A DNA stretch of 61,645 bases, counting the filler, from Hausera hauseri (Eukaryota), in the NCBI GenBank assembly GCA_046269625.1. It is 11 parts of 11 records of this genome, joined end to end, with 100 filler letters (N's around TTAATTAATTAA, not from the genome) between each part and the next. Parts side by side here need not be neighbours in the genome. Positions count along the whole stretch, not along the records: positions 36,815 to 40,793 come from JBJURY010842857.1; 10 more parts are not named here. One strand, written 5' to 3'. Made by a program: the position numbers and the translations under genes. Below, one piece after another: positions 36,891 through 37,135 of this stretch. Each line of letters opens with the position of its first letter. Position 1 is the first letter of the stretch. A model generated the notes under the pieces. It was not told the DNA's origin and did not search any database. It was given only the letters and a program-made list of their open reading frames with translations.

Positions 36891-37135
36891 GAGCAATTTA
36901 ACTGAGTCGTTATCGTTATTGATTGAATTTTGTCGATCATTATTCCGAATGGTAAATGTCTGTCATTTGTGACTGATTTGTGACAACCCATAATACTGCA
37001 TTTTCCCGATGGAAATATGATGCATGTAATATCAGTTGGACACTTGAGGACATACTGCCTCGGTTTCCATTGATTAAACGGCAGTGCATTAACACTCTCA
37101 ATAACATGTCCGCGGTATTTGATATTGGCTATCAT
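36891..37135 (-). CDS. TATA-binding-protein-like gene (first repeat and start of second), divergent from the Polinton ATPase
   Basis: IANIKYRGHV..TCIIFPSGKCSIMGC..IDKIQSITITTQLNC resembles TBP QNIVSTVNL..TALIFSSGKMVCTGA..DFKIQNMVGSCDV. Truncated by microsatellite and gap. Confidence 0.65.

Follow-up and report, generated by a model that had tools for sequence, protein, structure and literature searches.

Beta- and gamma-herpesviruses encode proteins resembling the TATA-binding protein (TBP), which are paired with TATT late promoters (PMC4893493; PMC7498053). These have been described as large proteins of several domains, which contact the CTD of Pol II directly as members of a six-protein viral complex. 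In vitro, EBV BcRF1 bound TATA and TATT alike (PMC4893493), and a viral TBP therefore need not itself carry specificity. Adintoviruses/MELD viruses have been reported with the gene set also seen in the elements studied here, namely pPolB, integrase, ATPase, capsid proteins, protease, and PLA2X (Starrett et al. 2021, PMC8502044). Polinton particles have not been observed according to the abstract of PMC8097293.

In PMC8502044 and its preprint, “TBP” is present as a label in the legend of Figure 5; as far as the accessible text of both extends, no family, residue changes, or motif are described. The word “promoter” is absent from the main text of PMC8502044 and one supplement file of the article gave no match when searched. 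Terms for TATA or TBP are likewise absent from PMC11161782, PMC8097293, PMC11296320, 10.64898/2026.06.19.733378, and 10.1101/2023.08.22.554363. Searches of the literature outside subscription journals and Repbase yielded no account of TBPs as a Polinton gene family, nor of the YATAAACR motif discussed below; the label in PMC8502044 was the only trace that we found.

Results and Discussion

A TBP-like gene in a Polinton fragment

We analyzed a stretch of 61,645 nt from Hausera hauseri (GCA_046269625.1), referred to here as the window, which comprises 11 segments separated by 10 N44-TAATTAATTAA-N44 linkers (e.g. 36715-36814). As the segments are merely concatenated, linkage across any linker in the window is not established. 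The TBP-like ORF is located on the contig at 36815-40793 (JBJURY010842857.1), a 4-kb internal fragment of an element (Table 1). It is intronless, begins with an ATG at 37135 on the minus strand, and continues for about 81 codons before running into (TGG)n. Both motifs quoted in the initial annotation, TCIIFPSGKCSIMG and KIQSITITTQLNC, are present in this frame, which spans the N-terminal repeat and the first strand of the C-terminal repeat. Beyond the repeat comes a linker, so the window lacks the 3′ half; a profile run against its six frames recovered only the 5′ piece.

The break in the gene is specific to this copy. In public runs containing the element family, contigs diverge from the window at 36899 (17 contigs in X1, one in X4, one in X5). 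A total of 28,080 X1 contigs map to the 3.9-kb stretch, which is consistent with a many-copy family but should not be read as a copy number. The copy in the window deviates from the TBP family at two of the 15 near-invariant columns of its stretch and is likely dead for this reason. It is a truncated and decayed copy rather than a working gene.

Table 1. Features of the contig carrying the TBP-like ORF.
Feature	Position	Strand	Basis
(TGG)n microsatellite, 25.7 copies, at contig end, interrupts TBP-like gene	36815..36891	+	Sequence
Mini-TBP gene, 5′ half (~81 codons), truncated and decayed	36893..37135	-	Sequence, alignment to family
Initiator-like TCAAT, about 28-30 nt past TATAAAT box	37141..37145	-	Sequence
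Canonical TATA box TATAAAT and putative early promoter, 38 nt ahead of the TBP-like ATG	37167..37173	-	Sequence
Variant TATA box TATAAACA, 37 nt upstream of ATPase ATG; putative late promoter	37200..37207	+	
A32/FtsK-type packaging ATPase pseudogene, stops and frameshifts	37237..37870	+	tblastn, 58-67% to relatives' ATPases
TATAAACA at ATPase gene end	37854..37861	+	Sequence
TATAAACA ~40 nt ahead of core-protein-like gene	38058..38065	+	Sequence
Basic core-protein-like ORF	38098..38415	+	One relative: weak Adeno_PX match
TATAAACA upstream of integrase region	38428..38435	+	Sequence
Polinton integrase, rve and chromodomain, internal stop	38563..39579	+	Pfam, homology
Minor-capsid-protein-like remnants	40293..40792	+	Place in gene order, similarity to relatives; no Pfam match

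The ORF is arranged head-to-head with a packaging ATPase, and the spacer, estimated at about 100 bp in the initial annotation, measures 101 bp. Both promoter types are carried back to back in this spacer, with TATAAAT and TCAAT facing the TBP-like gene and TATAAACA facing the ATPase; the initiator label of TCAAT follows what we take to be the consensus. The ATPase homologue starts at the ATG at 37237, with another in-frame ATG at 37210, and the ATPases of relatives match Pox_A32 in Pfam. A match of the ATPase fragment to a Botulinum helical domain (E 0.15) was discarded as chance. The Polinton hallmarks linked to the ORF on its own contig are the packaging ATPase and the rve integrase, while the pPolB, major capsid protein, and protease of the window are found on other contigs.

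These other contigs contain a variety of further elements. A second decayed Polinton piece (17861-22268, minus strand) holds an integrase end, minor-capsid-like genes, a major capsid protein, and a protease. There are two decayed protein-primed PolB genes (32123-34784, minus strand; 42591-45325, plus strand), the first of which is adjoined by a low-complexity ORF of 231 aa (35092-35784). Pieces of LTR retrotransposon with RT and an integrase zinc finger are present at 9964-14541 (minus strand), and the same contig contains a fragment of a Monjiviricetes-type fusion glycoprotein (13181-13666; PF24664, E 1e-21); the combination is either a retroelement that carries an envelope gene or an inserted viral sequence. 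Two related ORFs (731-1159 and 15086-15844, both plus strand) and an ORF of 373 aa (6653-7771, minus strand) have no Pfam match. At 46306-46698, 49683-50060, and 53694-55349 there is part of a mariner-type transposase along with more fragments of RT/RNase H/integrase.

Intact relatives form a family of compact TBPs

Taken alone, the window fragment gives a Pfam TBP score of 15.4 bits (E=0.017), under the cut-off of 22.9, and a PDB sequence search with it returned no match. The fragment is 70-72% identical to two full-length proteins, P0002 (149 aa) and P0003 (160 aa), with 72% identity to P0003 over 81 aa. Both pass the Pfam PF00352 threshold (62.9 bits for P0002 and 59 bits for P0003), through the C-terminal repeat only. 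Intact relatives of 149-160 aa, uninterrupted by the (TGG)n break, are therefore available. A search with P0003 yielded 240 relatives from 251 candidates, 108 of which constitute the alignment used here (A1). Typical members measure 144-175 aa and begin at the first strand of the fold. When a profile of the alignment was compared with the PDB, the 35 sequences matched were all TBPs or TBP fusions; the same profile retrieved 59 cluster representatives at E<1e-30.

Structure prediction gave the same assignment. The AlphaFold2 model of P0003 has a pLDDT of 95.9, and all 39 listed rows at E<1e-5 in a Foldseek search with this model were TBP chains. VIA-align returned Z-scores of 10.8-13.0 across 38 TBP entries, compared with 6.4 for the next fold. 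Residues 1-151 of the model superpose on residues 66-240 of yeast TBP (Z 12.9) as a two-repeat saddle. HHalign of the family against TBP gave a probability of 99.7, and the ESM Atlas result agrees with a TBP fold. The proposal that the ORF is TBP-like is upheld in two ways: its intact relatives pass the Pfam TBP model and the predicted structure of P0003 adopts the TBP fold with a Z-score of about 13. On the basis of this model, the ORF is confirmed as belonging to a compact family of TATA-binding proteins, here termed mini-TBPs, of Polinton/adintovirus elements.

Genomic context and phylogeny

Scanning of metagenomes identified 173 relatives, and the best 80 of the 173 were kept as loci, chosen by TBP. 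A Polinton hallmark gene (ATPase, integrase, capsid, protease, or pPolB) is present in 36 of these 80 loci and in 18 of the 21 that extend to at least 4 kb. L086 (12.7 kb), which was retrieved through its capsid gene alone, also encodes TBP; it is the only unbiased positive, as the 80 loci were selected by TBP. In L086, TBP is accompanied by pPolB, major capsid protein, and protease, and in part by the same genes in L013, L024, L037, L063, and L067. L086 is a nearly complete TBP-bearing Polinton within a bacterial MAG, where it is likely a binning contaminant.

The initial annotation had placed the gene inside a Polinton and asked whether its linkage to the ATPase extends to other copies. The first point is borne out by the hallmark genes at the relatives' loci, and the second in part: TBP and ATPase occur together at 26 loci, but the head-to-head arrangement is confined to two of them. 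The ATPase is downstream on the same strand in 23 of the 26 and upstream on the same strand in one, which excludes a conserved head-to-head linkage. Of the two outcomes that the initial annotation named as overturning its proposal, lack of a TBP-fold match and absence of the ORF beside the ATPase in other copies, neither was observed. In several other loci, TBP is placed after the protease region. Sequence identities of TBP and ATPase co-vary (rho 0.55 across 17 loci after removal of four near-duplicates), largely because two element groups exist.

A quick tree of 87 rows separated the family from eight canonical TBPs by a branch with SH-aLRT support of 93. The TBP of L001, a giant virus, was also apart from the family. 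Longer TBPs of the animal type were sought without success, and the tree therefore contains no animal TBP/TRF. An alternative is that the ORF is host sequence, either a TBP/TRF retrocopy or DNA that flanks a Polinton by chance. This might be suspected for an intronless ORF that ends at a microsatellite and the end of a contig, but the family has 240 relatives, which are found among Polinton genes at many loci, and separates from all eight canonical TBPs. In addition, one X4 contig carries the start of TBP and the start of the ATPase, 160 letters apart. The linkage data refute this alternative, and we regard its probability as negligible.

The A1 scan of viral contigs found only L001; among other queries of these contigs, the ATPase gave four distant matches and the MCP and PolB gave none. 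The MCP also had no match in a phage collection.

Several other genes are present at the loci. One conserved ORF is referred to as “DEDD?” on presumed resemblance and has no Pfam match. The ORFs that often adjoin TBP genes, which likewise have no Pfam match, we take to be SSB-like by resemblance. Accessory genes include signal-peptide-like LRR proteins, which lie behind a YATAAAC box in 5/5 cases (L031, L034, L043, L051, L054). They also include a dual-specificity phosphatase, a ubiquitin-conjugating enzyme, and RING fingers (L007:4008-4316, L024:225-719, L040:1710-2168, L067:13315-13893).

Residue pattern of the mini-TBP

Family residues were numbered through the plant-type TBP P0176, to which 41 is added to obtain the yeast number; the offset is anchored by P191, I194, V203, and L205, named in PMC1636458, and by the structural correspondence of residues 1-151 to 66-240. 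Among the 108 aligned sequences, the C-terminal repeat is complete and its acidic stirrup is retained (E186 in 97%, E188 in 99%, L189 in 82%). We take these stirrup residues to be the TFIIB-binding surface. The intercalating phenylalanines F116, F190, and F207 are retained in 99-100% of the sequences. The F99 position is proline in 99%, in the same register by MAFFT and HHalign, and hence three of the four intercalating phenylalanines of canonical TBP are present and the fourth is absent. With one of them lost, kinking of the TATA type may be impaired. The alignment also reveals deletion of helices H1 and H2 of the N-terminal repeat, and the model has no helix of at least four residues before residue 85. 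In canonical TBP, the surface formed by the lost helices is used by the regulators TFIIA, Mot1/BTAF1, TAF1, and Brf1, with H2 presumably the main Brf1 contact.

Eight further sites carry new residues in 92-100% of the 108 sequences: V71 is replaced by Asn, V122 by Arg, T124 by Met, N159 by Ser, V161 by Thr, I194 by Arg, V203 by Cys, and L205 by Asn. Except for the sites of the mutant TBPm3, we take these positions to be DNA-facing from TBP-DNA structures. I194, V203, and L205 make up the three sites changed in TBPm3, a mutant of altered specificity (PMC1636458). The same article also has P191 facing DNA, and it orients TBP with its C-terminal repeat on the 5′ half of the box. Distant relatives share the pattern: 57 of the 65 representatives counted carry Arg-Met, and 110 of 141 have Asn in place of L205. 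As the substitutions are fixed, they argue for an altered DNA preference rather than decay. Among distant TBP-like proteins (P0266, P0264, P0203), P0266 seems to have retained both helices of the N-terminal repeat, although its L205 site carries Asn as in the family; it is possibly an intermediate between canonical and mini-TBP, though it sits on a long branch and its placement is unsure.

A variant TATA box precedes virion genes

Genes at the loci have two classes of upstream region. In one, the motif YATAAAC is found on the sense strand within 100 nt upstream, with expectations derived from base shuffles. It precedes ATPase genes in 23 of 24 cases (0.7 expected) and, with fewer than one expected each, MCP (9/10), integrase (11/14), PLA2 (10/12), “DEDD?” (19/24), and protease genes (4/5). 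Reverse-strand YATAAAC was not found upstream of ATPase, MCP, integrase, or PLA2 genes. Both element groups follow this rule: the motif precedes 59/71 and 54/63 of their virion-type genes, compared with 5/83 and 1/26 of TBP and other genes classed as early. TBP genes have it in only 1 of 62 cases. A canonical TATA box is found before 28 of 62 TBP genes (15.6 expected) and before 7/8 genes of the neighboring cluster c11. TATA followed at the right spacing by TCAYT occurs before 12/68 TBP genes and 12/26 other presumed early genes, but only 3/139 virion-type genes.

The motif is specific in sequence. Before virion genes there are 136 instances of YATAAAC, compared with 5 of YATAAAG and 11 of RATAAAC. 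In 93% the eighth base is a purine (A or G); conservation peaks across 8 bp (YATAAACR) and is weak in the flanks. For the distance from motif to gene start, the commonest 10-nt bin is 31-40 nt (42/113 sites); measured to the first ATG, there are two modes, at 5-14 and 30-39 nt. Where the motif falls within coding DNA, Ile-Asn pairs spell it in 28/43 cases near a downstream gene, compared with 28/325 elsewhere. A corresponding codon test of [YH]K[QH] gave no separation (14/15 near vs 18/23 far). Across the loci, 156 of 292 motif matches are not within 150 nt of a labeled virion gene. Counted across the entire window, the motif is no more frequent than chance predicts (31 vs 30.3), and on the window's other capsid contig (15067-22269) the motif is intact before only one of the four genes checked.

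The motif might alternatively serve as the poly(A) or termination signal of the upstream gene, or as an initiator-type element for another factor, with the mini-TBP acting elsewhere, for example at a replication origin by the putative SSB genes. YATAAA does resemble AATAAA variants, the TAA of the motif is the upstream stop codon at 23 of 125 sites, and 44 sites lie inside the upstream gene. The distance mode of 5-14 nt from an ATG and the frequent proximity of TBP genes to presumably SSB-like ORFs are also in keeping with such roles. However, the motif precedes the ATPase in head-to-head layouts too (the window, L026, L033), in which the closest genes upstream lie on the opposite strand, and it is missing before all but one of 62 TBP genes, many of which are behind co-directional genes. 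The motif is also selective for C at position 7, as the counts above show. We consider a role of this kind distinctly unlikely, and a promoter element the better interpretation of the motif.

Nine partial Polinton contigs from an integrase scan, which have no TBP match (best E 0.15), served as a control. Two further candidates, L096 and L097, were dropped as they had no Polinton gene beyond a weak integrase match. On the control contigs, the motif is lacking before the homologous genes (0/33); 8/8 ATPases have a canonical TATA box upstream. The control ATPases are 62-98% identical to each other and form one lineage; the contrast of 85/102 with 0/33 is therefore in effect one comparison. The absence of the motif where no TBP was detected is suggestive, given that the control contigs are incomplete and a TBP may lie beyond them.

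The initial annotation offered two roles, namely transcription of a capsid operon or action as a decoy. As a decoy or repressor, the mini-TBP would tie up TFIIB or block host and early TATA promoters, and YATAAACR would be read by host TBP or another factor. The near-invariance of the TFIIB stirrup, despite loss of one intercalating phenylalanine and two helices, is compatible with this. So is the crystallization of host TBP on a C(-25) TATA variant, to judge from the title of PDB 1qn3, which means that a host factor may read YATAAACR. Yet the DNA-facing residues are fixed at new identities rather than degenerate, and the motif is absent from the sole lineage without a detected TBP. Furthermore, selection with TBPm3, a mutant yeast protein, is reported to have generally disfavored C in the downstream half of the box (PMC1636458). 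We regard the decoy as unlikely, and favor transcription of virion genes because the variant TATA box tracks these genes in TBP-bearing elements. An operon is not needed for this, as the motif precedes most virion genes individually.

Proposed role in late gene expression

We think it fairly probable that the mini-TBP of intact elements is a late-gene switch that acts through YATAAACR together with host TFIIB and Pol II. In this scheme, the mini-TBP gene would be transcribed early by host machinery (TFIID) from its canonical TATA promoter. The protein would then bind the 8-bp YATAAACR ahead of packaging, capsid, and integrase genes, and its retained C-terminal stirrup would bring in TFIIB and Pol II of the host. 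Lacking the N-repeat helices, it may escape the host regulators TFIIA, Mot1/BTAF1, TAF1, and Brf1. We infer the early/late timing, the binding of the mini-TBP to the motif, and the recruitment of TFIIB.

The mini-TBP could also read the motif with another polymerase or partner, such as Pol III/TFIIIB, a viral TFIIB, or the machinery of a helper virus. Against this, no match to TFIIB or a polymerase was found among 27 cluster representatives and 56 further ORFs of the Polinton loci, which are partial, and helix H2 is lost. The TFIIB search covered 54 of 64 unlabeled ORFs, two from L086, and eight from L001, and found no TFIIB; the ten omitted ORFs are mostly overlapping frames or near-duplicates. 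We hold such partnerships to be highly unlikely and retain the late-gene switch on host TFIIB and Pol II.

It has long been asked whether Polintons form virions and by what means expression of their capsid genes is controlled. If the proposed switch is correct, a dedicated factor and a one-motif late promoter would account for how capsid genes might remain silent across hundreds of integrated copies, and late-gene control of Polintons would become directly testable in vitro. The mini-TBP would be a natural minimal TBP of altered specificity, informative about what is needed for TATA reading and TFIIB recruitment. This value resides in the family, as the window's own copy is likely dead. More broadly, a wide and old group of animal Polintons may possess an orthogonal promoter system, built on a minimal TBP without host-regulator surfaces and with a re-engineered DNA face reading YATAAACR. 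This would give them a true viral early-to-late cascade on host Pol II, arrived at independently of herpesviruses. We regard this wider claim as evenly balanced.

Comparison with known systems

The family shares with cellular and archaeal TBPs (PF00352; 1ytb, 1cdw, 1qne, 1mp9) the saddle fold (Z about 13, rmsd about 2.6 Å over about 146 residues), the YEPELFP stirrup, F116/F190/F207, and N69. It differs in its length (about 150 aa vs about 180), identity (about 20-26%), and coding by a mobile element, as well as in the lack of H1/H2, the proline at F99, and the eight DNA-facing positions fixed otherwise. To the extent that sequence can assign it, the family is a member of the TBP family and not a canonical TBP. 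NCLDV TBPs (Heterosigma akashiwo virus 01; L001) are also viral proteins of this fold (BFVD E 1e-7), with at most 18% identity to the family. They reside in large genomes, with RNR and a family B polymerase in the case of L001, and the L001 TBP clusters with canonical TBPs in the tree.

There is a functional analogy with EBV BcRF1, KSHV/MHV68 ORF24, and HCMV UL87. In each case a viral TBP fold, in a virus with no RNA polymerase of its own, is combined with a non-canonical TATA box, at late promoters in the herpesviruses and at putative late promoters here, and these TATT-binding proteins are weak structural matches to the family in BFVD (E about 5e-3). In contrast to the herpesvirus vPIC protein, the mini-TBP has no long N-terminal Pol II-binding domain. 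It is a bare, shortened core with a TFIIB stirrup, for which no partner was found, and the box associated with it is YATAAACR rather than TATT.
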